Shown one piece after another: positions 4,048 through 21,413 of a stretch of DNA of 64,000 nucleotides. Made by a program: the position numbers and the translations under genes. The notes under the pieces were generated by a model. The model was not told where the DNA came from, ran no database searches, and saw only the letters and a program-made list of their open reading frames with translations. The stretch's first letter is position 1, and every line of letters begins with the position of its first letter. Source of the DNA: Candidatus Nanopelagicales bacterium (GTDB taxonomy: Bacteria; Actinomycetota; Actinomycetes; S36-B12); NCBI GenBank assembly GCA_040398845.1, contig JBBATH010000002.1, positions 75,559-139,558 on the forward strand, read 5' to 3'.

Positions 4048-4618
4048 GGCGTGTCTCCAATGTTGAGCGGGTGTGAGGCCTGATCATGGTGATAGGTCAC
4101 GTACCGCTGTTCTTTCTGAGGAGATGTGGGCTCGTATTGAGCCGTCGCTGCCTCCAGTGAAGGGGGAGATGGGCAGGCCGATGCGGTCTGAGAACCGCAC
4201 GCTGATTGAGGGGTAGATCTAGCGTCTTCGAACGGGGTGCGCGTGGCGTGATCTGCCAGCGGAGTTCGGGCCGTGGCAGACGGTCTGGAAGCGTCACGCT
4301 CGCTTCTGCAAGGACAGGACGTGGGACGCGGTCCTGATCGCTGTCCAGGCCGAGGCGGATGCCAAGGGGGAGATCGCCTGGAATGTGTCGGTCAACTCCA
4401 CGATGGCCCGTGTTCACCAGCATGGGGCTACTGCTCCGAGGTCTGACGTGAAGGTCACCGCTCACACAGGGGGCTCGGTCGAATGACAAAGCATCGCTGG
4501 GTAGCGGGAACGAACCGAACGATCACGCCATCGGTCATTCCCGGGGTGGCCTGACGACCAAGACCCATGCACTGGTCAACGGCCGTGGGCTGCCGCAGGT
4601 CCTGATCCTGACGACCGG
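4044..4618 (+). mobile_element. Truncated copy (left 575 bp) of a decayed IS5-family / IS427-group-like insertion sequence
   Basis: By eye, base-for-base the same as 8305..8879 (offset 4261); the ORF track gives identical translations for 4097..4489 and 8358..8750. It starts with the IR ctagggcgtgtctcc. It encodes a DUF4096-type transposase N-terminus, LSEEMWARIEPSLP...RLRTGCAWRDLPAEFGPWQTVWKRHARFCKDRTWD, broken by in-frame stops (LIEG*I*). Homology ends abruptly at 4618. Confidence 0.85.
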
Positions 4619-4839
4619 AGGCAGTCAGCAAGGTCGGACCGGTCATGAAGAATCTGGACCTCAAGAACCCACTCGTCCGTGACGCAATCCTGCCAGGGCA
4701 CAAGTCGCCGCTGGATTACTACGAGTGCAACATCGCCATCGTCGCCGATTACACGTACACCTAATCCAGAACCTGTTTGGCCCCGAGCAACAAATTGACA
4801 TTCCAGATTTCATGAATACACGTGTGATAGGGTTCAGAC

Positions 4840-5886
4840 ATGGTAGTAAGCGTCCCTGCCCTGCTACAGGATGAGCTTGCCCGTCGTGACTGGCGACAGG
4901 CGGACCTCTGCCGCGTGCTCGGTTGGTCGACGCAGTCACTCTCTGAGCTCATGCAAGGCAAACGCCGGCTTGATACATCGATGGCTTTGGACCTCGAGTG
5001 CCTCACCTGCGAAGGTGCTGAGTACTGGCTCAACGCCCAACTCGCTGCTGACCTCGACAGTGCCCGGCGCAAGGACAGCCTCGCTGATCGAAACTCCAAC
5101 ATCCGTGCACGAGCCGAAGTGGAGTCGCTGGCACCAGTTCGCGAACTCATCCGCCGCCATTACGTCACAGCCAAGGAGCCGAGCGATCAGCTTGAGCAGG
5201 TTCGCCGACTCATCGGTGACGATGTGGCCTTCGGCGCCTTCGCAAAGCGAAGTGTCAATGGCACACCATTCACCCGAACGCAGGCTGCGTGGATGGCGAT
5301 TGCCCGGGACGTGGCCCACACGAGGGTTAGTAACGCCTTCAATTGCGAGCTCTTCGCGAAGTTTGCTGCCGAGCTGCCAAGGACTGTCCGTGACCCCGAA
5401 CACTTCCGTCGTCTGCCCGCTGACTTCGCAAGCCTAGGTGTTCGCATCGTATACGTGAAGCCGTTTCCCGGTGGCCGCATCGATGGCGTGTCCATGCGCC
5501 TAGACGACAAACCGATGATCGCCTTGTCGGGGCGAGGCAAGCGCCTCGACAAAGTTCTCTTCGCCCTACTTCACGAGTGTGCTCACATTGTCAGTGGAGA
5601 TTGGCTTCTCGGTCCTCGCGTGCACGAGGACAATCACGAGCAAGTCGTTGGTGATGATGCATCCGAAGCCGCCATTAGCGCTCTGGCGACTGACTGGGTA
5701 TTCCCCCGTGGGATGACCTTCCGTGGCCCACCCACGCGCCAGATCGTCCAAGATGTGGCCGATGAGTTCAACGTGGCGCCAGCAATCGTCGTAGGCCATC
5801 TCCAGCACTCCGGTGTTATCGATTGGTCATCCATTCTCAGCCGAGGACTACCCACCGTGGAGGAGCAGCTGATGTCTTGGACATAA
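4840..5886 (+). CDS. Xre/HigA-like HTH fused to an ImmA/IrrE (COG2856) zinc metallopeptidase
   Basis: 348 aa. N-terminal HTH RQADLCRVLGWSTQSLSELMQGKRRL. C-terminal HExxH in ALLHECAHIVSGD, typical of ImmA/IrrE peptidases. Confidence 0.8.
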   Translation: MVVSVPALLQDELARRDWRQADLCRVLGWSTQSLSELMQGKRRLDTSMALDLECLTCEGAEYWLNAQLAADLDSARRKDSLADRNSNIRARAEVESLAPVRELIRRHYVTAKEPSDQLEQVRRLIGDDVAFGAFAKRSVNGTPFTRTQAAWMAIARDVAHTRVSNAFNCELFAKFAAELPRTVRDPEHFRRLPADFASLGVRIVYVKPFPGGRIDGVSMRLDDKPMIALSGRGKRLDKVLFALLHECAHIVSGDWLLGPRVHEDNHEQVVGDDASEAAISALATDWVFPRGMTFRGPPTRQIVQDVADEFNVAPAIVVGHLQHSGVIDWSSILSRGLPTVEEQLMSWT

Positions 5887-5891
5887 AACAC

Positions 5892-5924
5892 GTCCGGATG
5901 GGTGCACGAAGCACCCACCCGGAC
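5892..5924 (+). terminator. Strong hairpin directly after the HTH-ImmA stop (possible terminator or attenuator)
   Basis: GTCCGGATGGGTGC acgaa GCACCCACCCGGAC: 14-nt arms with 1 mismatch and a 5-nt loop, beginning 6 nt after the stop. No U-tract follows. Confidence 0.45.
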
Positions 5925-5991
5925 ATTGCCAAAGCGGCTGCAACCGCTAGGCCCCCTCCCAGCCACGCGAAGAACCGAAAAGGACTTCATC

Positions 5992-6696
5992 ATGCTAACC
6001 CCTGACCGCTCCTGCTGTTCGTGCGATCCACCCCTTTGGCGTGCGGCGCGCGAAACTCTTCTCACCAGAGATCTGTTTTGGTACCCACCCGGCTTTCCTG
6101 TTGTGGGCGAATGGCAGATGCCTCTTTTGCCTGCACCCTCGCTCGACACGAGCCCGAGCCACTTCGCCCCCTACGACAAGAGAGCCGCGAACGAGGAACC
6201 TTCCTCGACGCTACTCCACGGGTACACGGCCAACCGGAAGCTACAGAGCCAACTGACTCGGCCCCACGAGTGGAGCGAGCGATTCGAAGGCTTTTGGGGA
6301 ACCGTCACACCAGACTTCTCCATGTGGGTCGACGACCCACTCGACATCAAGGTCTTTGCTACGCGCATGAGTCGCTCCGTCGGCGCTTTTCACGCCAGTC
6401 GCGGTCACCGTGTGCTACCCGGCATTCGCTGGACCGGACCCGCTGATTACGCATTCTGCTTCGATGGCATCACCCGGGGATCCGCAGTATCGGTGTCCAA
6501 CTACGGGTCGTGGAGGGATCCGGAGATGAGAGACCGCTTCCTCATCGGACTACCCGTGATGGTCGAAGTCCTCGAACCGTCAGTCGTCTTCGTTCACGGC
6601 ACTATGGATCACCGCTTATTCAGGATCCTCCAGAGCAAGACAGCCTTTATCCCACTGCAGACGCGCTGGAACAGCATGACAACGCAGGCTGGCTGA
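5992..6696 (+). CDS. DUF4417-like protein
   Basis: The ATG at 5992 is preceded by aaaagga. From memory of the DUF4417 profile it matches at FWGTVTPDFSMWVDDPLDIKVFATRMSRSVGAFHASRGHRVLPGIRWTGPADYAFCFDGITRGSAVSVSNYG (PDFS...YR.R..G...G..ViP...W....y.fcFdGi..gs.v.vS). Not verified by a search. Confidence 0.6.
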   Translation: MLTPDRSCCSCDPPLWRAARETLLTRDLFWYPPGFPVVGEWQMPLLPAPSLDTSPSHFAPYDKRAANEEPSSTLLHGYTANRKLQSQLTRPHEWSERFEGFWGTVTPDFSMWVDDPLDIKVFATRMSRSVGAFHASRGHRVLPGIRWTGPADYAFCFDGITRGSAVSVSNYGSWRDPEMRDRFLIGLPVMVEVLEPSVVFVHGTMDHRLFRILQSKTAFIPLQTRWNSMTTQAG

Positions 6697-7082
6697 TGGG
6701 CGGGCATTCTGGAGGTGGTTTCGCCGCCGGATCGCCTCGCTCCCCGCAAGCTTTCGAGAGGAACGCTTCTGCGCTTCTTCGTCGCTTCCCAGTGAACCAA
6801 CAGGGCCTCTTCGGCGTTCCAGGCCGTGGCAGCACGCGCCGGCTGTACAGCGACGACCCTGCGGCCACGGCCCGATACTTCTACGACACCCTCGGTCGTG
6901 GCGGTGCGCTACGCCGCATCGATCGTGGTTACATCCGCACTTTCGATGACGGTACGCACGTCACCTACCGCCCAGTCTCAGGATCAGACGGGAGTCCGGC
7001 CATCCAGATCACTGTCCGAAACCCAAACTCTCCCCTGGCCCGGTACCAAAAAATCCACTTCATGAAAGGCTCCGACCAATGA
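6696..7082 (+). CDS. hypothetical 128-aa protein (candidate small toxin-like module)
   Basis: Its ATG shares one base with the upstream TGA (TGATG at 6694-6698). Sequence MGGHSGGGF...IRTFDDGTHVTYRPVSGSDGSPAIQITVRNPNSPLARYQKIHFMKGSDQ. No domain recognised. The long 6510 start would overlap the DUF4417-like gene by 187 nt. Confidence 0.5.
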   Translation: MGGHSGGGFAAGSPRSPQAFERNASALLRRFPVNQQGLFGVPGRGSTRRLYSDDPAATARYFYDTLGRGGALRRIDRGYIRTFDDGTHVTYRPVSGSDGSPAIQITVRNPNSPLARYQKIHFMKGSDQ

Positions 7083-7666
7083 AACACGTGAACGTCACCC
7101 TCGCTCAGCGCGACATGTCCATGCTCGCGCCGCTCATCGGCGGACGTTGGGTCTTTATGGCCGGTGAAGCAATGACCCCTCACATGTTTTCGCCCGTGGA
7201 TGTCATCGTGAACACGACCAACGGTGCCGTGCGCATCGTGTCGGAGACGTTCGACTCCGACTTCGAAGGTGGCGAGGACGATACATACGCGCGCTTGTGG
7301 ATTTCCGATGACGTGAGCAGTCTGCGCGTCGCCCGACGCGAGGGGAACGTCTACGTCCACCACAGGGATGAACTCATTGATGACGTTCTCGTCGTGAGAG
7401 ACACCGTGTCGGCCATTGAGTCCGGGGAGACCCTGTGGACGTTGACTACCGATGTCGCCATCGTGTTCCAACTCAGCGGTAGCGTCATCTCGATTGCAAA
7501 AGGCAGTCACCACACTGAGATGCTCAGCGTGACCATGGCCCGCGGTCTGAAGTTGCTTGAGATCCCTGACTGTGTCGATGAATGGCAGGACGATCTGACC
7601 ATCCGCCACGAGTCCAGTCGAGAGTTGATCCCTCTAGCGACCTTGATGGCAGACGGGCCGAGGTGA
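7079..7666 (+). CDS. hypothetical 195-aa acidic protein (candidate cognate partner/immunity)
   Basis: Its ATG overlaps the upstream stop (ATGA at 7079-7082). Acidic, with no signal peptide or TM segment. No recognisable domain. Confidence 0.5.
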   Translation: MKHVNVTLAQRDMSMLAPLIGGRWVFMAGEAMTPHMFSPVDVIVNTTNGAVRIVSETFDSDFEGGEDDTYARLWISDDVSSLRVARREGNVYVHHRDELIDDVLVVRDTVSAIESGETLWTLTTDVAIVFQLSGSVISIAKGSHHTEMLSVTMARGLKLLEIPDCVDEWQDDLTIRHESSRELIPLATLMADGPR

Positions 7667-7737
7667 CTAAGGATGCGCGAATTAACAACGTAGGTTTTCG
7701 CGTGTGAGGGGCGTACGGCCGTATTACGTCCGCGAGC

Positions 7738-8304
7738 GTGGAACTTGTCGATTCCGTCGGGCGACGGTACGAGGTGTTACGGCCGCATCTGGATGAGCGT
7801 CAGCGTCGGTTGCTTCCCGGGGCGGAGGCAGGGGTGCTGGGGCGTGGCGGGATCAAGGTGGTCGCGGTGGCGACGGGCACTCACCCGGACACGGTTGCTC
7901 GGGGGGTGCAGGACTTGGAGGGCATTGACGAACCGGTGGTGCGGGTGCCGTTGCCGGGCGGTGGTCGCAAGAAGTTGTCGGTGAGTGACCCGCAACTGCT
8001 GGCGGAGTTGAAGGCGTTGGTGGATCCGGAGACCCGGGGGGATCCGATGTCGTTGCTGGTGTGGACGACGAAGCCGACGAGGAACTTGGCTGCGACGTTG
8101 ACCCAGTCGGGTCATCGGGTGTTGGACCGTACGGTGGCCAAAATGCTGCGTGACTTGGGTTTCGGGTTGCAGGAGAATGCGAAGGTGACTAAAGGTCGTC
8201 AGCATGAGGACCGTGATGCCCAATTCGGCTACTTGGCGGGGCAGGTCGCCGAGCAGGCGCGAGATGGCCAACCGGTGATCTCCGTTGACACCAGGAAGAA
8301 AGAA
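7738..8304 (+). pseudogene. ISAzo13-family (DDE_Tnp_ISAZ013) transposase, N-terminal fragment interrupted by the IS5-like element
   Basis: RRYEVLRPHLDERQRRLLPGAEAGVLGRGGIKVVAVATG...RGDPMSLLVWTTKPTRNLAATLTQSGHRV...RQHEDRDAQFGYL...QPVISVDTRKKEL matches the N-terminal third of ISAzo13-type transposases as I remember them. The frame runs straight into the IS inverted repeat at 8305. Only GEF continues after the IS. Confidence 0.75.
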
Positions 8305-9222
8305 CTAGGGCGTGTCTCCAATGTTGAGCGGGTGTGAGGCCTGATCATGGTGATAGGTCACGTACCGCTGTTCTTTCTGAGGAGATGTGGGCTCGTATTG
8401 AGCCGTCGCTGCCTCCAGTGAAGGGGGAGATGGGCAGGCCGATGCGGTCTGAGAACCGCACGCTGATTGAGGGGTAGATCTAGCGTCTTCGAACGGGGTG
8501 CGCGTGGCGTGATCTGCCAGCGGAGTTCGGGCCGTGGCAGACGGTCTGGAAGCGTCACGCTCGCTTCTGCAAGGACAGGACGTGGGACGCGGTCCTGATC
8601 GCTGTCCAGGCCGAGGCGGATGCCAAGGGGGAGATCGCCTGGAATGTGTCGGTCAACTCCACGATGGCCCGTGTTCACCAGCATGGGGCTACTGCTCCGA
8701 GGTCTGACGTGAAGGTCACCGCTCACACAGGGGGCTCGGTCGAATGACAAAGCATCGCTGGGTAGCGGGAACGAACCGAACGATCACGCCATCGGTCATT
8801 CCCGGGGTGGCCTGACGACCAAGACCCATGCACTGGTCAACGGCCGTGGGCTGCCGCAGGTCCTGATCCTGACGACCGGCAATGCGAGTGATTCTCCTGC
8901 GCTGCCAGTGCTGCTGAACCAGCTCCGGATCCCGCGCTGCGGCCCTGGCCGGCCTCGGACAACCCCGGACGCGTTGCGCGGTGTCGAAGCTTACTCGACC
9001 AAGGCCCACAGCGAGAACAAAGGCTGCCGCGGTGGCCAGCCGATCGGCTTCGACCCCGAGGACGACAAGAACCGCAACCTCATCGAACGCGCCTCCAACA
9101 AAGCAAACACTGGCGCCGACTCGCGACCCGCTACGACAAGCACGCATTCATCTACAGAGGCGGCATGGTCCTCGCATCATCCATTCTGTGGCTCACCGTC
9201 TGAGTTCGGAGACACGCCCTAG
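8305..9222 (+). mobile_element. Complete-ended but decayed IS5-family / IS427-group-like insertion sequence (918 bp)
   Basis: Perfect 15-bp terminal inverted repeats: ctagggcgtgtctcc (8305-8319) and ggagacacgccctag (9208-9222), with CTAG at both junctions. The transposase frame has at least 3 in-frame stops (LIEG*I*, GGSVE*). It also has a late frameshift, where QSKHWRRLATRYDKHAFIYRGGMVLASSILWLTV reads in another frame. The segment between KAHS and RGG is shortened. Confidence 0.85.
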
Positions 9223-9306
9223 GTGAGTTCCCGACACCACTACCGCAACAGGTGGGGGGAACGGACGGGACTGCGGCGTCTAGTTGGCGGCGTACGATTT
9301 CGCGCT

Positions 9307-9882
9307 ATGGGCGACAACGCGGGGTCCACGTCTCGCAGCATCGGGGATGTGCGTTGGGCAGTCATTGTCAACGGCCCACCGGGTTCTGGGAAGACCACGA
9401 CTGCTCACGCGCTTGCGGCGGTGCTGCGGCTCCCCGTGTTCTCCAAGGATGCGGTGAAGGAAACGCTGCTCGACGGGTTGGGCTACGCGAGCCGTGAAGA
9501 TTCACGCGCCATCGGCGCGGCGAGCGGCGAAGTCGTCTGGACGCTGCTGCGGGACTGCCCGACACCTGCCATCGTGGAGTCCTGGTTGGCACCCCACACG
9601 CGAGACATCGTTCGCGCGGGCCTGCGTCGAGCGGCAGTCGAGAGGGTCATCGAGGTGTGGTGCTCCTGTCCATTCGACGAGAACCGACGCCGATACGCCG
9701 AGCGCGAGCGCCATCCGGGGCACTACGACGTCGCACTGCTCCCCGAGTTGGACGAGGTGCTCCGGACCGCTGAACCTCTGGGTCTTGGCGAAGTCCTCCG
9801 AGTGGAGACCGACCGCGACCTGGACGCAATGGGCTTGGCGCGGTCTGTTCTGGCTGCCGCCCGGCTAGAACCGCAAGGCTAA
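9307..9882 (+). CDS. P-loop NTPase / AAA_33-like kinase family protein
   Basis: Walker A VIVNGPPGSGKTTTAHAL. About 190 aa from MGDNAGS. The longer 9223 start begins at the IS junction, so it is unlikely. Confidence 0.6.
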   Translation: MGDNAGSTSRSIGDVRWAVIVNGPPGSGKTTTAHALAAVLRLPVFSKDAVKETLLDGLGYASREDSRAIGAASGEVVWTLLRDCPTPAIVESWLAPHTRDIVRAGLRRAAVERVIEVWCSCPFDENRRRYAERERHPGHYDVALLPELDEVLRTAEPLGLGEVLRVETDRDLDAMGLARSVLAAARLEPQG

Positions 9883-10029
9883 GCGCCCAGCGAAGGGAGC
9901 GCGCAAGGCCGCCGACATCGAGCTCCGCCCTACCGCTGTCCAACACACCTACCGCTACCAGCTCCGCAGGCCGGCAGGGTGACGTCGCTCCTGTCGTGCC
10001 CGGTTCCTTGCGTGAACGCGATCGTCGGG

Positions 10030-10443
10030 ATGCTGGCCCTGCTCGAGTCCGACTTTAGGGTGCGTCTGGTAAGCGGCGAAGGAAGCGAACGTGTCCTCCC
10101 ACCGCAGATGAAGGTGATTCTCCGCCGAGCAGGCGAGATCATGGGTCAGGGCCACGACGTCGATGTGCTCGACGCCAGCAGTGAAACGCTCACTCCGAAC
10201 GAGGCGGCAGACCTCATCGGAATCAGCCGGCCCACCCTTCTCAAGCTCATCGATGAGGGAGTGCTCACGGCGACCAATGTTCCTGGGAGCTCGCATCGCC
10301 GTCTCGACCGCCTTGAGGTTGAGGCTTTCCGGGACAGCCGCCTCGAGATGCAGCCCGGTCTCAACGCCGCCGCTGCCGAGGCAGGCGCGACTGGGCTCTT
10401 CACTCGTCTACCTCGCAAGGCCCGGGCGCGGAACGGTCGGTAA
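10030..10443 (+). CDS. helix-turn-helix (excisionase/MerR-like) antitoxin of a PIN toxin pair
   Basis: RVRLVSGEGSERVLPPQMKVILRRAGEIMGQGHDVDVL...TLTPNEAADLIGISRPTLLKLIDEGVL...HRRLDRLEVEAF matches the HTH antitoxin family that precedes PIN toxins in actinobacteria. Its stop overlaps the next ATG (TAATG). Confidence 0.65.
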   Translation: MLALLESDFRVRLVSGEGSERVLPPQMKVILRRAGEIMGQGHDVDVLDASSETLTPNEAADLIGISRPTLLKLIDEGVLTATNVPGSSHRRLDRLEVEAFRDSRLEMQPGLNAAAAEAGATGLFTRLPRKARARNGR

Positions 10444-10927
10444 TGAGCCGCCGGGTCGTCGTCTACGCCGACACGAACGTCCTGTACCCGTACTACATCT
10501 CCGACCTGCTGCTATGACTGGCGTCAGACGGGGTCAGACGGAGGCGACTCACCCGCGACGTTGGGCGAGACGAGAGGTCCGTGCACAGCCAGTCGGACGC
10601 GGCTCGCGCGCACCTCAAGCGCGGGCGAGGGTGAGCGAGGCCCAATGGCGGACGAAGATGAGGCTCACCACTGGACCGGATGCCGATGACCACCCTCACC
10701 AGGCTGCGGCCATCTGCGCGCGGGCCGACTACCTCCTGACTCACGACAGCAGGGGATTCCCTGTTGGTCCCTTGCGCGAACAGGGTGTCACCGTCACGAG
10801 TGTGGATGACTTTCTCTGCGGCATCTTGGCCGAGCAGCCGGATGACGTCCTAGACACCGTGCAGAGTCGGGCCAGAAGCCTGAAGCAGCCACCGATGACT
10901 CTCGAGCGTTACCCAGGGAAGCACTGA
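10443..10927 (+). pseudogene. PIN-domain toxin, disrupted
   Basis: Opens MSRRVVVYADTNVLYPYYISDLLL, then hits an in-frame TGA. The family C-terminus (DADDHPHQAAAICARADYLLTHDSRGFP...VDDFLCGIL...SLKQPPMTLERY) is readable only in another frame, inside track ORF 10163..10927. Confidence 0.65.
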
Positions 10928-11356
10928 TTTCCCTATCCCTACTCATCCCCAAGGTTTTCACTTGAGTCATATCCACCGTGAATCCCGATGAGTTATGCAC
11001 TCACGAGGGACTCGTCGGGATTCGGGGTGGATCTGTCCGAATCGGCGCTCACTCGACTCACCACGCATGCCCGGAAACAGCCTGCGCGGCAAACAGCCTG
11101 ATGATCAGCGCTTCCCTAGAGGCTCTCGCGCTGCCAGCCCCTCGGTTCGCCGAACTGGTTGACCACGCATCGGACACTCACCTGTCCCGACTCGTTCGAC
11201 TACTCGTGCGTCTGCGCAAAATATCCAAATAAAGGCACGACGCCACCAGCGCCGCTTTGTGGAGTCAGTTTCGTGCGGCAGGTGCTCTATCTCGTAAACC
11301 TGAGCCACCCATGGGCTACGGTCCTTTATGCAGGCTGCGCGAAGGGAGGACCGGTC

Positions 11357-11974
11357 ATGAAGCATCGGACGACGGCTGGACTGATCGCGGCTACGGCCCT
11401 CTTGGGCAGCATTGCTACTGTCGTGTCAGCGTCTGCAGCCCCGGTGGGCGAGTTCACCACCTCCAACCAGATCGACGGAAGTTCGACTCCTCTCGGTATC
11501 GCGAAGAGCGCTGACGGGAGCATGTGATGCGCCCAGTGGGGCGGCAACAGCATCGGGCGCATCACCCCGGGCGGGGTGGTCACGAAGCACGCGGTGCCCA
11601 CCCCAGGTGTGGACCCGATGGGGATCGCGGCTGGTCCGGACGGGGCAATGTGGTTCACGGAGCGTGTTGCATCTCGGATTGCCTCGGTGGGCACAGGAAG
11701 GTGCAGGTCGGTGACGGCCCGTGTTACCGGCCGGACTGAGGTCGGCTCGACATTGCGGTGTGCGCTCGCCAACAATTCGGGATGGACGATCGCGGCAACC
11801 TCCCAAGTCTGGCTCAGAAACGGTGCGGTGATCCCGAGAGCAAATGGGCGAACCTACGTCGTCAAGGGCCAAGATGCAGGCAAGAACCTCACGTGCCAAG
11901 CGACGGTTACATTCAGTCCAGCGTTGAACCAGATGGGTGCCCAGTCCAAGACAAGGCCGATCGGCCACAGGTAG
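11357..11974 (+). pseudogene. secreted Vgb/NHL-like repeat protein with a single in-frame TGA (paralog of 25936..26448)
   Basis: RBS gaagggagga and a signal peptide (MKHRTTAGLIAATALLGSIATVVSASA). The TGA at 11525-11527 interrupts ...SADGSM*CAQWGGNSIGRI, and the same frame continues through 11974. The stop sits where the repeat motif has Trp (GPDGAMWF later in this protein, GPNGAMWF in the paralog). Confidence 0.7.
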
Positions 11975-11998
11975 TCCCTTTGGTTGCAATGCTGGGAC

Positions 11999-13237
11999 CT
12001 ACGTCTTCCCGCTGGGCCAGTCACGGTCAGGAGCGGCACCTGGTGCCGGCAACGTGACGCCGGCTTCGAGGTCGGCGAGGAGGTCAAGCAGGCCGGTGGC
12101 TTCCCAGGTGCGGTTGCGCTTGCCTTGCGACGCCCGGGTGAGCACGCCCGCGGATTCAAGTTGGAGGAGGGCGTCGTTGACAACGGCCTTGGTTCGCCCG
12201 GTGGCGGCCACCGCGACGGGGCCGGAGATCATGGGGTGCGCGGGCATGACATCGATGAGAGCCCAGGCTACGGAGTCCGCGCGCGGATTCGCGGCCGTGC
12301 CAAGCATCGCCCGCCACTGGTCCTGGAGGGCCTCCACCCGCGCGAGGTAGCGGCTGGCCAGCCCCGCGGACTGGGCAGTCGCCGCGGCGAAGGTCGTCAG
12401 CCAGGCGTCCACGTCCCCGCGCGCATAGGCGTCCAGCCCCGCGATGTAGGCGCCCGTGTCGCCAGCGAGCACGACGCTGATCGGCGGCACGTACATCGGG
12501 GTCAGCCCACGCCGCCGGAGCACGACGTGGATAAGGGCCCGGCCGATGCGTCCGTTGCCGTCCAGGAACGGGTGGATGACCTCGAACTGAGCATGCACCA
12601 GGCCGGCCTGGATCACCGGCGGCAGCGCCACATCGTTGATCGAAGCGCACAGGTCCTCCAGCAGTCGTGGGACCTCCTGCGGCGGTGGTCCCACGAAGCT
12701 GGCCCCGCACGGGTTGTAGTTGTTCCCGCCGATCCAGATCTGCTCGGTGCGCACGACGCCGGCGACGTGGGCGTTCGCGACCGTAGCCATCAGCGCGGCG
12801 TGAATGCTCACCAAATCGTTGAGCGTCACCGCGCTCGAACTGGTGGCATGGTCGATGGCGAGCTCCATCGCGTCGATGTTCGCCAGGATCTCCGCCGCCG
12901 TGGATCCGACCTTCCGCCCAGTCTCGAGCCGCGCCTCCGCACGCGCCAGGTCGCGGGCGTCGACCTGCATGCCCTCCACCTTCGAGGATGCGATCGACTC
13001 CGTGCGCAGCAGCAGCCGGGCCAGCGGCGGCAAAGCAGGCAGGGCGCGCGCATTCAACCGGTGGACGGCAGTCTCCGCATCGGATACCACCCCCACCAGG
13101 TCCGCTGAAAACAGCTCGTCGAAATCGGACAGCTCGTGAGGAACGAACGACTCGTAATGGCAGGCACGCCGGAACCTGGGCGGCGCATACCGAGCAGGGT
13201 CGTACTCCCACGCCCGACGCACCAGAGTGCCGCGCAT
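11999..13237 (-). CDS. Fic family protein (AMPylase-type) with N-terminal inhibitory helix and C-terminal wHTH
   Basis: Fic motif HPFLDGNGRIGRAL. Upstream motif SSKVEG fits (S/T)xxxE(G/N). 412 aa. Confidence 0.85.
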   Translation of the reverse strand: MRGTLVRRAWEYDPARYAPPRFRRACHYESFVPHELSDFDELFSADLVGVVSDAETAVHRLNARALPALPPLARLLLRTESIASSKVEGMQVDARDLARAEARLETGRKVGSTAAEILANIDAMELAIDHATSSSAVTLNDLVSIHAALMATVANAHVAGVVRTEQIWIGGNNYNPCGASFVGPPPQEVPRLLEDLCASINDVALPPVIQAGLVHAQFEVIHPFLDGNGRIGRALIHVVLRRRGLTPMYVPPISVVLAGDTGAYIAGLDAYARGDVDAWLTTFAAATAQSAGLASRYLARVEALQDQWRAMLGTAANPRADSVAWALIDVMPAHPMISGPVAVAATGRTKAVVNDALLQLESAGVLTRASQGKRNRTWEATGLLDLLADLEAGVTLPAPGAAPDRDWPSGKT

Positions 13238-13374
13238 ATCCCCGACTCACTGAACCACATCGAATGTATTAGTACTCAAACCATACTATGGAGATTCCTC
13301 AGACACCATGCGCGACGGTAACCGGTGCCCACCCACGAAGCGTCACGACCCCGTGGCACTGAACACCACCCGGG

Positions 13375-17679: not shown

Positions 17680-18566
17680 CGGCCCCTCCGCTCGCCGAGG
17701 ACTTCGAGTAGTGCCTCGGCATCGCGGGCCTTCAGCAGACCGGCACCGACGGCGCGGTCAGCAGTTAGGCGCCCGAGCGCTCGGTACGCGCTCGCCGCCT
17801 CTGGTGAGACCTCCTCGATCGCCCGAACATGATCTGCTACCGAAGCGGCGTCACCGCGGGCCACCGGTCCGGTGAGCGCCTGATCACCCCACCTGAGTGC
17901 GTTGTCGAGCGATGCACCAAGGAGCGGTGCCACGAGTCGCTGTGGGTCCGCAATTCCGGCGTGACGAAGCAGGTCTAGGCACTGGCTCACGAGCGTGATG
18001 AGGTAGTTGGAGCCGTATGCGAGGGCCGCGTGATAGGTCGACCGGTGCTCCTCCGGGACCCAGAACGGATCCCCACCCATCTCGACCACGAGGGCCTCAG
18101 CCACCGGACGAAGCACCTCCGGAGCCGTCACCCCGAAGGGGCAGTCACTTAGCCGGCTCAAGTCCAGGCTGGTGCCGGTAAACGTCATGACTGGGTGTAG
18201 GGCAAGGGGTAGTGCGCCCATTCGCGTCGCCGGGTCAAGCACCTCAATGCCAAACCGTCCTGCCGGGTGGCACCAGAACTGCCCCGGATGAATATTCCTC
18301 GTCTCCGCGAGGCCCGCGATGAGTCCTGGCAGGGCGTCATCGGGGACCGCCACGAGCACCAGATCGACATCGAGCACCACGGCAGGAAGATCGAGGATCG
18401 GCACACCTGGCAGCAGCGCCTCGGCTCGAAGCCGCGAGACATCAGAAACGGCGGTGACCGCCACGAGTTCATGTCCGGCGCGACGCAGCGCAGCGCCGAG
18501 CACCGCGCCGACGCGTCCGGTGCCGATGATGCCGACGCGCAGTCTCGGCGGGCCCAGATCGCTCAC
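17676..18566 (-). CDS. Rossmann-fold / DUF2520 oxidoreductase-like protein (pan-cluster associated)
   Basis: GIIGTGRVGAVLGAAL dinucleotide fold, and a C-terminal TGPVARGDAASV segment typical of DUF2520. Confidence 0.7.
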   Translation of the reverse strand: MSDLGPPRLRVGIIGTGRVGAVLGAALRRAGHELVAVTAVSDVSRLRAEALLPGVPILDLPAVVLDVDLVLVAVPDDALPGLIAGLAETRNIHPGQFWCHPAGRFGIEVLDPATRMGALPLALHPVMTFTGTSLDLSRLSDCPFGVTAPEVLRPVAEALVVEMGGDPFWVPEEHRSTYHAALAYGSNYLITLVSQCLDLLRHAGIADPQRLVAPLLGASLDNALRWGDQALTGPVARGDAASVADHVRAIEEVSPEAASAYRALGRLTADRAVGAGLLKARDAEALLEVLGERRGR

Positions 18567-18594
18567 AGGTGGAGCCTAGAGCCCGGTACCGTCA

Positions 18595-19473
18595 GTGGTC
18601 GTGCCGGATGAACTCACGCTCGTAGATGCCTGGGAGGAATCCCTTACCGGCGTTCGCTCGTTCTACCGCGGAGCCCACGGCGACCCCTACCGACATTTCG
18701 CAACCGATATCGCGAGGGGCGGGGAGATCATTCCCCTCATTCGTGAACTCTTTGCCTTCGCAAGCGATTGCCACGGTGGGCCTCTCACTGTCATTGATGT
18801 TGGATCGGGCACCGGGGGGCTCCTGACGAGACTCGCGATTGCCGGCATCGACGCCAGGCTCATTGGCATCGACCTGCGACCCCGACCCGCGGGGCTCGAC
18901 GCTGGTATCGAGTGGATGACCGGAGACGCCCGACTGCTCGCCCGTGAGATTCGCGGAGTTCGGGGCATTGTCGTCGCCCACGAATTCCTCGACGACATCC
19001 CGTGCCCGGCAGTTGAGGCGGGCGAGGACGGATGTCCGCGGCTGATCCGCGTGGACCCCTCAAGCCGCAGGATCGTCGTTGGCGAACCGCTCGAGGACCC
19101 CGCCGATCTCGGGTGGCTTGATCGTTGGTGGCCCGTCACCCGCCCGTTTATGCGAGCTGAGATCGGCCGGAGCCGCGACGAAGCATGGTCCGATATCACC
19201 GGGATGCTCAACTCAGGGGCCGCCCTCGCTATTGACTACGGCCACACCCGCCCCGAACGGCTGGCCGGCACGTGGGACGGCGGCACCCTCGTCGGTTATC
19301 GCGAAGGTCGAGTGGTCACCCCGGTTGCTGACGGCTCATGCAACCTCACTGCCCACGTGTCGATTGATTCGGTTGCCGAAGCCGCGCGCACAGCGCAGTC
19401 GACGCGGATCACCCATTGGTCGTCAGTACCCGGACGCGCAGACTTCGTCAGCCTCGTCCAGACCTTCACCTGA
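18595..19473 (+). CDS. SAM-dependent methyltransferase, MidA/NDUFAF7 (COG1565)-like
   Basis: FYRG...HFAT, VIDVGSGTGGLL (SAM motif I), AHEFLDDIPC, GAALAIDYGH and GTLVGYREGRVV...NLTAHVSIDSV follow the MidA family order of motifs as I remember it. Alternative (GTG) start. Confidence 0.6.
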   Translation: MVVPDELTLVDAWEESLTGVRSFYRGAHGDPYRHFATDIARGGEIIPLIRELFAFASDCHGGPLTVIDVGSGTGGLLTRLAIAGIDARLIGIDLRPRPAGLDAGIEWMTGDARLLAREIRGVRGIVVAHEFLDDIPCPAVEAGEDGCPRLIRVDPSSRRIVVGEPLEDPADLGWLDRWWPVTRPFMRAEIGRSRDEAWSDITGMLNSGAALAIDYGHTRPERLAGTWDGGTLVGYREGRVVTPVADGSCNLTAHVSIDSVAEAARTAQSTRITHWSSVPGRADFVSLVQTFT

Positions 19474-19485
19474 CACACTTGCCCA

Positions 19486-20610
19486 GTGACGTCACGCAAA
19501 GTCCTCGTCGCGCTCGGGGCAGCCCGTCACCTTGACGCAGATCTCGTCCTCGATCTCGGCGACCTCCACCCTGCCCAGCACGGCGCCCTCCAACTGGCCC
19601 TCGAACTCGATGACGACACCATCACCGCAGCCGATGCCCGCGTCGGCCTCCTGCATCGCAGCGCCGAGAAACTCTTCGAGGCACGCGATTATCGACAGAT
19701 CCTCATGCTCGCGAATCGGCACGACTGGCTATCTGCCTTCTCCTCAGAACTAGGAGTTGCCCTCACCATCGAAGCGGCGATGGGCATCGTTCCCCCCGAA
19801 CGCGCCACCTGGTCGCGCACCCTGCTCGCCGAGGTGAATCGCATCACGGCATCGCTCCTCCTCGTTGGGGCAGCCGTGCCCGATGCCGCGCCGAGCCTCG
19901 CTGTGCGAGAGGAGCTTCAGGAACTCCAAGAGCGGGCCACCGGCGGCCGAGTCCACCCGATGATCACTCGAATCGGCGGGCTCGCGCATCCGCTCGATAC
20001 ACCTTGGCTTGACGATCTCGTGCGAGTGCTTGCAGGGCTCACCTCACAACTGCCCGCTGTCCGCGAGTCCGTGACTACCGCCATGCAGGCTCACTCAGGA
20101 GTCGCCGTTCTCACCACCGCCGATGCACTTTCGATCGGGGTGAATGGGCCGGTCGCCCGAGCAAGCGGCGTCGACCTCGACCTCCGTCGTGATGCGGAGC
20201 TCCTCGCCTACCCGGAACTCTCGTCGCTGATCGACGTTTCGATCGCCACCGCGGGCGACATCCCCGCGCGTTACGAGGTCCTTCTCGGCCAGATACCCGT
20301 GAGCATTGCCATCGTCGGGGCCGCCAGCGCCCGGCTACGCGAACTTGGCGAAGGGCCGGTGAACGTACCGCTGCCCAAGGTCGTTCGGGTCCCCGAGAGC
20401 ACGAGTTACGGAGAGTTCGAAGGCCCGCTCGGACGCAGCGGCTACCTGCTCAGTAGCGTCGGCGAGAAGACTCCGTGGCGCCTGAAACTCCGCACGCCCT
20501 CATTTACCAATGTCCAAGCGCTGGCACGGGCTCTGCCAGGCACTCCCCTGCATGCCCTTGGGCCTGCGGTGACATCGTTCTTCTTCGTCGTCGGCGACAT
20601 CGACCGCTGA
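19486..20610 (+). CDS. stand-alone NuoD / complex I 49-kDa (NDUFS2)-like protein
   Basis: LHPAQHGALQLALELDDDTITAADARVGLLHRSAEKLFEARDYRQ aligns to the NuoD motif QHPxxHGvLRLvLEL.Ge.v...dphIGyLHRg.EKl. The C-terminus RTPSFTNVQAL...VVGDIDR aligns to R.PSF.Nlq.l...vmGevDR. No other nuo genes lie nearby. Confidence 0.7.
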   Translation: MTSRKVLVALGAARHLDADLVLDLGDLHPAQHGALQLALELDDDTITAADARVGLLHRSAEKLFEARDYRQILMLANRHDWLSAFSSELGVALTIEAAMGIVPPERATWSRTLLAEVNRITASLLLVGAAVPDAAPSLAVREELQELQERATGGRVHPMITRIGGLAHPLDTPWLDDLVRVLAGLTSQLPAVRESVTTAMQAHSGVAVLTTADALSIGVNGPVARASGVDLDLRRDAELLAYPELSSLIDVSIATAGDIPARYEVLLGQIPVSIAIVGAASARLRELGEGPVNVPLPKVVRVPESTSYGEFEGPLGRSGYLLSSVGEKTPWRLKLRTPSFTNVQALARALPGTPLHALGPAVTSFFFVVGDIDR

Positions 20611-20622
20611 CGAATGGCTCGG

Positions 20623-20919
20623 CTACTTCTCGTGATCGCGAATGTAGGTCGCTAAGCGAGCCCGCAGGAGCGCCTCGGTCGTGGGATCGAGATCCTTGTC
20701 ACCGAGCATCTCGCGCACTGCCCTGACCGTCTCGATGAAGGTGCCACCGATAGCACCCAGGTCGCCACCCTCGCCCTCAATTGCCACCATGCCGGGCATG
20801 TGTGCGAACAGATCAGTGAAGAAGCCGATATCGACGCGCTTCTCGGCCAGGTGGAAGGCTCGGTGACGAAGTTCGTCGAAGGGCAGGTCCTCAAGGCTCG
20901 TTGCATCGCTCATGGTCAC
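20623..20919 (-). CDS. conserved hypothetical protein (98 aa)
   Basis: Coding-like high-GC3 codon use. Its start overlaps the upstream gene's stop by 4 nt. No recognised domain. Confidence 0.5.
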   Translation of the reverse strand: MTMSDATSLEDLPFDELRHRAFHLAEKRVDIGFFTDLFAHMPGMVAIEGEGGDLGAIGGTFIETVRAVREMLGDKDLDPTTEALLRARLATYIRDHEK

Positions 20920-21413
20920 GAGCCTATACGCGCGATCGCGCCCCCCGGCCCATCACGATCGCGATCGACAGGCAGCCGACACTTCCGCTCAAGCCACAGC
21001 GCCGACGCTACGAGTGCGAGCGACCCGAGGGTCGTGATGAGCGCGGCCGCTACGGAGACGCTGCCCGCCTCGGTCATCCTTGAGGGCAGGGTCCCGATCG
21101 CGATCCCCGCATAAAACCCGGCGACGAGCGAACCGGTCCGTGAGGCGGCCATGGCCAGCGCTGCTGTTCGCGCGGCGACGAGCGGTGGCAACGGTCGCGA
21201 GCCCGGCTTACGTTGGAGTCGCGGACGGCTCAGGACGGTCCAGATGAGCAGGGCCAGAGCAAGGAACCACATGGTTGCGCCTGCGAGCCAGGGCACTGGA
21301 ATCACCCGACCAGTCCGCCCCTCGACGAGCGTCGCGGCGCCCCAGCCAACCGCCGCCGCGATCACGGCGAGGCCGGCGAGCAGCCGAATCCGGGTTGGCG
21401 TCATGGCATTCAC
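20916..21413 (-). CDS. DUF3180 membrane protein (fol-cluster associated)
   Basis: Four predicted TM helices. It sits immediately downstream of folK, like the M. tuberculosis Rv3605c-type protein. Confidence 0.7.
   Translation of the reverse strand: MNAMTPTRIRLLAGLAVIAAAVGWGAATLVEGRTGRVIPVPWLAGATMWFLALALLIWTVLSRPRLQRKPGSRPLPPLVAARTAALAMAASRTGSLVAGFYAGIAIGTLPSRMTEAGSVSVAAALITTLGSLALVASALWLERKCRLPVDRDRDGPGGAIARIGS

Follow-up and report, generated by a model that had tools for sequence, protein, structure and literature searches.

Introduction

In mitochondria, the methyltransferase NDUFAF7 (MidA) dimethylates an arginine of NDUFS2, the 49-kDa subunit of complex I and the counterpart of bacterial NuoD. 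This arginine lies in the HRGXE motif next to cluster N2 and is symmetrically dimethylated in the bovine (R85) and Yarrowia (R121) proteins (PMC8042128, PMC3829151). It has been reported to be critical for cluster N2 in Yarrowia, and Thermus, which has a threonine at the same position, is a known exception (PMC8042128). The enzyme and its target are also physical partners, since MidA binds NDUFS2 in both Dictyostelium and human (PMC3829151, PMC9006661). Here, we describe a pair of genes from the same two protein families in a 64-kb stretch of DNA from a Candidatus Nanopelagicales bacterium (contig JBBATH010000002.1; below, the window, to whose numbering positions refer unless a locus identifier is given). 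The first open reading frame (ORF) encodes a MidA-type methyltransferase (18595 to 19473, + strand; 292 amino acids, GTG start) and the second a NuoD-like protein (19486 to 20610, + strand; 374 amino acids, GTG start). We find that the NuoD-like protein belongs to a separate paralogue family predicted to have a disabled quinone site and, by analogy with the mitochondrial couple, we favor the reading that the methyltransferase methylates Arg58 of its co-encoded partner, a proposal to which we give slightly less than an even chance.

Identity of the two proteins

The first ORF encodes an S-adenosylmethionine (SAM)-dependent methyltransferase of the MidA/NDUFAF7 family (Methyltransf_28, COG1565), as the initial annotation, made from the sequence alone, had proposed; its public annotation is "SAM-dependent MidA family methyltransferase." Pfam Methyltransf_28 (PF02636) matches it with an E value of 3.1e-16 (60 bits against a cut-off of 23.3) and is present in all listed homologues but one short fragment (P0188), and the profile scan added weak generic methyltransferase family matches at residues 64 to 97. 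A search of the PDB with the single sequence gave no match, and a profile of 20 homologues was needed to retrieve the COG1565/MidA structures 4f3n (6e-17) and 1zkd (1.6e-13) and Dictyostelium MidA, 5ztz (9e-7). The AlphaFold2 (AF2) model has a predicted local distance difference test (pLDDT) score of 88 and a predicted template modeling (pTM) score of 0.89, and in Foldseek it matches 4g67, 4f3n, and 5zu0 with template modeling (TM) scores of 0.71 to 0.77 (E values of 1e-13 to 5e-11), compared to 0.50 or less for other methyltransferases. Normalized to the target MidA structures, the TM score is only 0.54 to 0.61. The protein is a short form, with 292 residues against about 380 to 430 for the full-length MidA architecture with its C-terminal helical part. 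About 45 alignment columns near the C terminus, a helical segment, are deleted relative to Streptomyces-type homologues, and the identity to solved MidA structures is 11 to 20%.

All four motifs quoted in the initial annotation are present, and each has core residues that do not vary within the family. The SAM-binding motif I, VIDVGSGTGG (18790 to 18819, + strand; residues 66 to 75), satisfies the class I pattern D/E-x-G-x-G-x-G, with D68, G70, and G74 invariant and G72 nearly so among the 20 homologues. The other three, all on the + strand, are characteristic of the MidA family: AHEFLDDIP (18976 to 19002; residues 128 to 136), with A128, E130, L132, D133, and P136 invariant, aligns with VVGNEVLDAMP of 4f3n; AIDYGH (19228 to 19245; residues 212 to 217) aligns with FIDYGF of 4f3n; and NLTAHV (19342 to 19359; residues 250 to 255) aligns with DITAHV of 4f3n and DLTAHV of 1zkd. 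Segments matching the family motifs (A/G)-x-E-(F/L)-(L/F)-D-x-x-P, (I/V)-D-Y-G, and D-(L/I)-T-(A/S)-H-V are all found, and the protein is predicted to be a catalytically competent class I SAM methyltransferase.

The second ORF encodes a full-length paralogue with the NuoD/NDUFS2 fold, of a soluble type that we call the RHDW family. The end-to-end alignment with NuoD claimed earlier is borne out by Pfam Complex1_49kDa (PF00346; E value of 1.5e-39), by the NCBIfam NuoD model NF004739, which covers residues 22 to 374 of 374, and by the AF2 model (pLDDT, 86), which superposes on the 49-kDa subunits of mitochondrial, Paracoccus, Thermus, and Mycobacterium smegmatis complex I with TM scores of 0.80 to 0.84. 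The profile and fold matches of both ORFs are far beyond chance.

The protein is publicly annotated as "NADH-quinone oxidoreductase subunit D" or "NuoD2," and the former name would fit the organism's own nuoD having been displaced from its nuo operon. We consider this explanation barely credible. The score lies below every NuoD equivalog cut-off, at 229.7 bits against 360 for NF004739, 212.8 against 459 for TIGR01962, and 213 against 522 for NF008974, and the protein carries the distinct signature of the RHDW family. For Streptomyces, displacement is refuted. Streptomyces coelicolor carries both operon nuoD, SCO4565, within its complete NADH dehydrogenase operon (SCO4562 to SCO4575; PMC3479208), and a second NuoD homologue, SCO3392 ("NuoD2"), located between panC (SCO3383) and folK, folE, and ftsH (SCO3401, SCO3403, and SCO3404), where the family is also found in the other actinomycetes. 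Likewise, a canonical Streptomyces nuoD (locus L084, positions 8001 to 9323) lies within a nuoA-B-C-D-E-F-G-H-I-J-K-L array.

Actinobacterial NuoD exceeds the paralogue in length by about 65 residues. Relative to the canonical protein, the paralogue lacks about 20 N-terminal residues and 25 to 40 internal residues just before the C-terminal beta-sheet. It contains no cysteine at all and hence none of the four cysteine ligands of the NiFe center. In the alignment with Drosophila NDUFS2, both histidines of the beta1-beta2 loop are retained (LHPAQHG against QHPAAHG). In this loop, HPAQHG (19567 to 19584, + strand; H28 and H32), H32 takes the position of the quinone-ligand histidine (Yarrowia H95, Thermus H38), according to the alignment and PMC8042128. 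The HRGXE motif is represented by HRSAE (19654 to 19668, + strand; LLHRSAEKL against LLHRGTEKL in Drosophila), and here we located the residue equivalent to the methylated arginine, since Arg58 (19657 to 19659) aligns with the dimethylated R85 of bovine and R121 of Yarrowia NDUFS2. In contrast, the tyrosine that binds the quinone head group is replaced by tryptophan (NRHDW against DRLDY): the RHDW signature (19717 to 19728, + strand) stands in place of R-x-D-Y and places Trp81 at the position of Thermus Y87 and Yarrowia Y144, next to a family-specific His79. At the C terminus, GDIDR (20593 to 20607, + strand), a remnant of the metal-ligand motif of hydrogenases, has Asp371 in place of the glutamate of GE(I/V)DR. 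Because the quinone-ligating tyrosine and the N-terminal and internal segments are lost, the protein is predicted not to be the quinone-reducing subunit of complex I.

The least confident stretches of the AF2 model are also the most conserved ones (residues 51 to 80, residues 151 to 170, and the C-terminal GDIDR), and we cautiously suggest that their structure may depend on a partner or ligand.

The paralogue family

When 1.8 billion cluster representatives were searched exhaustively with the NuoD-like protein, a long series of proteins of about 360 to 400 amino acids emerged. In about 120 of the 150 best clusters at 50% identity, which were inspected, the signature (L/M)A(N/D)RHDW was found where canonical proteins have DRxDY. 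A comparison of 78 full-length family members with 21 canonical NuoD sequences gave nine family-conserved positions that differ from NuoD (D68, L75, A76, H79, W81, E88, H157, A261, and D371). Trp81 is present in 100% of the 78 members, compared to tyrosine in 21 of 21 canonical sequences, and Arg58 is retained in 97% of the family. The quinone-ligand histidine, H32 here, is replaced in many divergent members, which argues against quinone reduction as the function of the family. Judged by these sequences, the family forms a large and distinct group of NuoD paralogues. Two intermediate NuoD-like forms, P0334 (398 amino acids) and P0377 (500 amino acids), have N-R-I-D-W or D-R-M-D-W, that is, the tryptophan without the family histidine, and P0334 also carries a shortened LPKVIKVP segment; they are possibly deeper branches of the paralogue family.

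In the sequence, the invariant family-specific residues D68, H79, W81, H157, and D371 appear to be grouped on those stretches that in NuoD form the lining of the former NiFe-, quinone-, and N2-facing pocket. We take this to mean that the pocket may have been adapted to another partner or ligand. One form that this could take is a soluble module that stands alone and works independently of complex I. Its pocket (His79, Asp80, Trp81, His157, and Asp371/373) would then accommodate a new ligand, metal, or protein partner, and methylation of the adjacent HR(G/S)xE loop would switch or tune the binding. We give this a minor but real chance.

The arginine contrast

The most telling argument for Arg58 as the target of the methyltransferase comes from what canonical actinobacterial NuoD has at the same position. 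NuoD of M. smegmatis (PDB 8e9g, chain D) reads GYLHTGIEKN...TRMDY, with threonine instead of arginine, and all 120 retrieved Streptomyces NuoD cluster representatives (P0407 to P0526) have GYLHTGIEK and TRMDY. The canonical motif in Streptomyces and M. smegmatis is H-T-G-x-E, in contrast to H-R-(G/S)-x-E in the paralogue, and genuine NuoD has threonine at this position in Streptomyces and probably in most other carriers. Given that Streptomyces NuoD is unmethylatable at the classical site and that an Arg-bearing paralogue is encoded beside the methyltransferase, it would be simplest to regard the paralogue as the target.

Under this reading, the two genes would form one transcription and translation unit, and the methyltransferase would bind the paralogue as MidA binds NDUFS2. 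It would then modify the guanidino group of Arg58 in the HRSAE loop, the same residue that NDUFAF7 dimethylates in NDUFS2, and in Streptomyces, where genuine NuoD has threonine, the paralogue would be the sole available target of that kind.

Conservation of the gene pair

A scan of one genome per species gave 454 relatives, and we examined 83 loci, consisting of the best 80 of these and 3 found by exact-protein look-up. The relatives include members from freshwater actinobacterial metagenome-assembled genomes, Nanopelagicales, Frankiales, Micromonosporaceae, Streptomyces, Kitasatospora, Streptacidiphilus, and Embleya and also from Nonomuraea, Streptosporangium, Cryptosporangium, Aeromicrobium, and Ornithinimicrobium. 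A methyltransferase homologue is present in 72 of the 83 loci. In 45 of them, it directly precedes the NuoD-like gene on the same strand, and a 4-nucleotide (nt) overlap is very common, so the adjacency is conserved. These frequent overlaps imply coupled translation. The same arrangement is seen from the side of the methyltransferase in Actinoplanes, where the pair overlaps by 4 nt. In another 23 loci, 0.5 to 5 kb of unrelated and mutually different genes lies between the two. The position between the pan and fol genes is shared by freshwater actinobacteria, Streptomyces, Kitasatospora, Nonomuraea, Actinoplanes, and others, and in the loci examined, the paralogue was never inside a nuo operon. 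We conclude that the linkage between the methyltransferase and the NuoD-like gene is strong and old, though not absolute.

The two genes could also be mere neighbors in a conserved housekeeping block, with the methyltransferase having a different substrate, whether protein or small molecule, and the NuoD-like protein being independent of it. The entire pan-fol region is indeed syntenic across Actinomycetes, unrelated insertions split the pair in several genera, and each gene is found without the other close by. However, strand and order are common to nearly all loci, and the 4-nt overlaps recur in many independent lineages. Furthermore, the sole characterized members of both families are a physically interacting enzyme-substrate pair, and the contrast between arginine in the paralogue and threonine in canonical NuoD also speaks against mere proximity. 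Coincidental neighborhood seems quite improbable to us.

Several observations nevertheless weigh against a dedicated enzyme and substrate. In Nonomuraea, Embleya, and some Streptomyces, the pair is split by 1.5 to 5 kb of unrelated genes. Two streamlined freshwater lineages keep a NuoD-like gene with the arginine but have no adjacent methyltransferase: it has been lost at the locus, and the DUF2520 gene abuts the NuoD-like gene (L012, positions 5931 to 6001; L013, positions 1514 to 1582). Conversely, the Glycomyces methyltransferase has no NuoD-like gene within 6 kb. The equivalent of Arg58 is also conserved in many canonical NuoD proteins of organisms without MidA, and conservation of the arginine alone is thus no proof that it is a target. 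Finally, overlapping genes suggest 1:1 synthesis, which an enzyme and its substrate do not require, and a stable heterodimer with some other activity would be equally compatible with the overlap.

A third conserved partner was sought in the inserts where 1.5 to 5 kb separates the pair, and none was common to all. Their contents are heterogeneous and include TerC-like, class V aminotransferase, DoxX-like, CoA-transferase, bPH_2-type membrane, cytochrome P450, and epimerase proteins. In Oryzobacter telluris (L085), a same-strand ORF of 190 amino acids without a Pfam match (positions 6988 to 7560) lies between the two genes and could be a lineage-specific third component or a mere insertion. In one of the two streamlined lineages (L012), asparagine replaces the histidine that precedes the arginine.

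Relation to complex I

Published label-free proteome data for Streptomyces lividans, its pptA mutant, and S. coelicolor under 12 conditions (PMC8981147, supplementary Table 1) allow the paralogue to be compared with complex I subunits. The SCO3392 protein was quantified in 12 of 12 conditions. In the S. lividans strains, it ranged over 0.74 log2 units, compared to 4.8 for NuoD, and in S. coelicolor it was lower while NuoD and NuoC were higher. Across all 12 samples, the correlation between SCO3392 and NuoD was r = -0.49, against r = 0.98 between NuoC and NuoD, showing that SCO3392 is made but is not in step or stoichiometric with complex I. If the eight S. lividans samples are taken by themselves, however, SCO3392 and NuoD do vary in parallel, though SCO3392 only slightly (r = 0.88), so there may be a loose functional tie to respiration. 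In the proteome table, SCO3392 and the operon gene SCO4565 are both labeled "NuoD2," which illustrates the confusion in annotation.

These data bear on the idea that the paralogue can take the place of NuoD in complex I as an alternative isoform, giving for example an inhibitor-insensitive or differently tuned quinone site, and that it is matured by the methyltransferase as NDUFAF7 matures NDUFS2 next to cluster N2. The paralogue keeps the NuoD fold, the HRGXE motif, and most of the core residues, and the window protein has both beta1-beta2 histidines as well; the parallel changes in S. lividans (r = 0.88, n = 8) would agree with such a role. So would the report that "NuoD" of piericidin-producing Streptomyces carries Y87W and a substitution at position 401, for which natural resistance was proposed (Degli Esposti 2015, PMC4758237), since both features match the family. 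These features are hallmarks of the family, which extends far beyond piericidin producers, and we suspect that the protein in that report is the paralogue taken for the complex I subunit. The tryptophan at the tyrosine position is invariant family-wide, including in aquatic genome-streamlined lineages, and according to mutagenesis cited by Degli Esposti 2015, a change from tyrosine to tryptophan severely lowers activity with decylubiquinone (DBQ). Many members have also lost the quinone-ligand histidine, the canonical N-terminal and internal segments are absent, and none of the loci examined has the gene within a nuo operon. With an abundance that is not stoichiometric with that of NuoD or NuoC and a strain effect opposite in direction, we regard an exchangeable isoform as unlikely.

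A role in the biogenesis of complex I would not require the paralogue to be a subunit. The NuoD look-alike could be a placeholder or chaperone for NuoB/NuoC or for N2 insertion, with methylation controlling its release. NDUFAF7 is an assembly factor (PMC8042128, PMC3829151), and its homologues adjoin an 11-subunit nuo operon in other monoderm bacteria (bioRxiv 10.1101/2021.02.01.429150). The N2-facing HRGXE helix is kept in the paralogue, and the low AF2 confidence in the invariant residues 51 to 80 and 151 to 170 and at the C terminus is as expected of partner-dependent surfaces. Against this stand the lack of any genomic link to nuo genes and the family-specific changes, which hit residues facing NuoB and the quinone site and argue for a changed partner. 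Mycobacteria have complex I but are not known to carry the pair at this locus, which also speaks against an assembly role. On balance, we see a biogenesis device as rather doubtful.

Genomic surroundings

The 12-nt gap between the two ORFs reported by the initial annotation is confirmed by their coordinates (19474 to 19485, + strand), and this spacer has no obvious Shine-Dalgarno sequence. The placement inside a fol-pan cluster and the lack of nuo genes nearby also held up. The two + strand ORFs are flanked on both sides by blocks of minus-strand genes, with coaX, nadC, nadB, panC, and a Rossmann/DUF2520 gene on the 5' side of the methyltransferase gene and, converging on the 3' side of the NuoD-like gene, a 98-amino-acid ORF, DUF3180, folK, folB, folP, folE, and ftsH. 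No nuo gene was found among the window ORFs of at least 300 amino acids or among the immediate neighbors of the pair, nor did the related loci show one. Only 28 nt separates the DUF2520 start codon from the divergent methyltransferase start (18567 to 18594), and 12 nt separates the NuoD-like gene from the convergent 98-amino-acid ORF (20611 to 20622). A scan of positions 18000 to 21200 found no promoter-like site and a single terminator-like site, inside the methyltransferase ORF and at the level expected by chance. The 28-, 12-, and 12-nt gaps contain no promoter-like or terminator-like signal and leave too little room for classical ones. The tight packing and signal-free gaps suggest that transcripts are leaderless or internally promoted. 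Rfam and tRNA scans of the window found only one tRNA-Leu, distant from the pair.

The 98-amino-acid ORF (20623 to 20919, - strand), which lies between DUF3180 and the NuoD-like gene and has no Pfam or NCBIfam match, is the best-conserved protein of the region, with 74 to 93% identity in freshwater actinobacteria compared to 51 to 87% for the NuoD-like protein; weaker copies (39 to 42%) occur in Frankiales and Cryptosporangium. We assign it to the fol-side operon. Elsewhere in the window, the stretch from about 4100 to 13300, between a haloacid dehalogenase (HAD) hydrolase gene and coaX, has a lower GC content (0.60 to 0.64) and contains genes for a helix-turn-helix protein, DUF4417, a DDE transposase fragment (ISAZ013-type), an AAA_33 kinase-like protein, and a Fic/DOC protein. 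It looks like a strain-specific insertion island, because the HAD gene directly adjoins coaX in a related complete genome (L001).

Discussion

Both proteins of this locus have been annotated individually before. What appears to be new is the pairing of a MidA-family methyltransferase with a stand-alone, putatively quinone-site-disabled NuoD paralogue as its putative target. Literature searches gave no description of the pair, of the RHDW family apart from NuoD, or of a function, in agreement with the initial annotation, which knew of none. DUF185 matches in a mutant-fitness preprint were rejected, as they are really DUF1854.

The pair offers a genetically tractable bacterial system for the role of arginine methylation of the MidA/NDUFAF7 type, with Streptomyces (SCO3392 and its upstream gene) as the obvious model. 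The putative target is separate from the working complex I, a situation that is impossible in mitochondria. Complex I of Streptomyces and M. smegmatis runs with threonine at the "essential" N2-proximal arginine position, which raises the question of what an Arg-bearing paralogue contributes. There is also a practical aspect: a paralogue named NuoD or "NuoD2" is an annotation trap, as metabolic reconstructions may include it under nuoD. If the protein proved to be a stand-alone module, it would represent a new function for the ancient fold of hydrogenase large subunits, and bacteria would have a first dedicated circuit of arginine methylation outside respiration.

Among known systems, a bacterial link between a MidA-family gene and a NuoD-family gene has been found in heliorhodopsin-carrying monoderm bacteria (bioRxiv 10.1101/2021.02.01.429150). 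In that case, however, NDUFAF7 lies beside the whole 11-subunit nuo operon and has a presumed assembly role, in contrast to the single stand-alone paralogue here. The group 4 [NiFe]-hydrogenase large subunits and the Mbh/Mbx/Fpo-type proteins share the superfamily fold and were found as distant matches (6cfw_L, 6u8y_L, and 7z0s_E). The paralogue differs from them in being free of cysteine, and therefore has no NiFe site, and in having no small-subunit or membrane-subunit genes nearby. Canonical NuoD/Nqo4/49-kDa proteins are closer, with the same fold, 27 to 31% identity, and the shared motifs HPxxHG, HRGxE, GxRxH, and C-terminal G-D/E-x-D-R; what sets the paralogue apart is that it lacks a nuo operon, scores below the equivalog level, has tryptophan for tyrosine, and has its own H79, H157, D68, and D371.

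The nearest parallel is the couple of NDUFAF7/MidA and NDUFS2, found in mitochondria and inferred for alpha-proteobacteria, which involves the same two protein families and an HRGXE arginine in the NuoD-like partner. The eukaryotic enzyme and target are known to bind each other. In the actinomycete pair, the partner is a shortened paralogue with tryptophan for the quinone tyrosine, predicted not to be a complex I subunit, and the two genes make up an operon of their own, apart from nuo. The methyltransferase of the window is divergent and shorter (292 amino acids), and where mitochondria have the dimethylated arginine, genuine NuoD has threonine in both Streptomyces and M. smegmatis.

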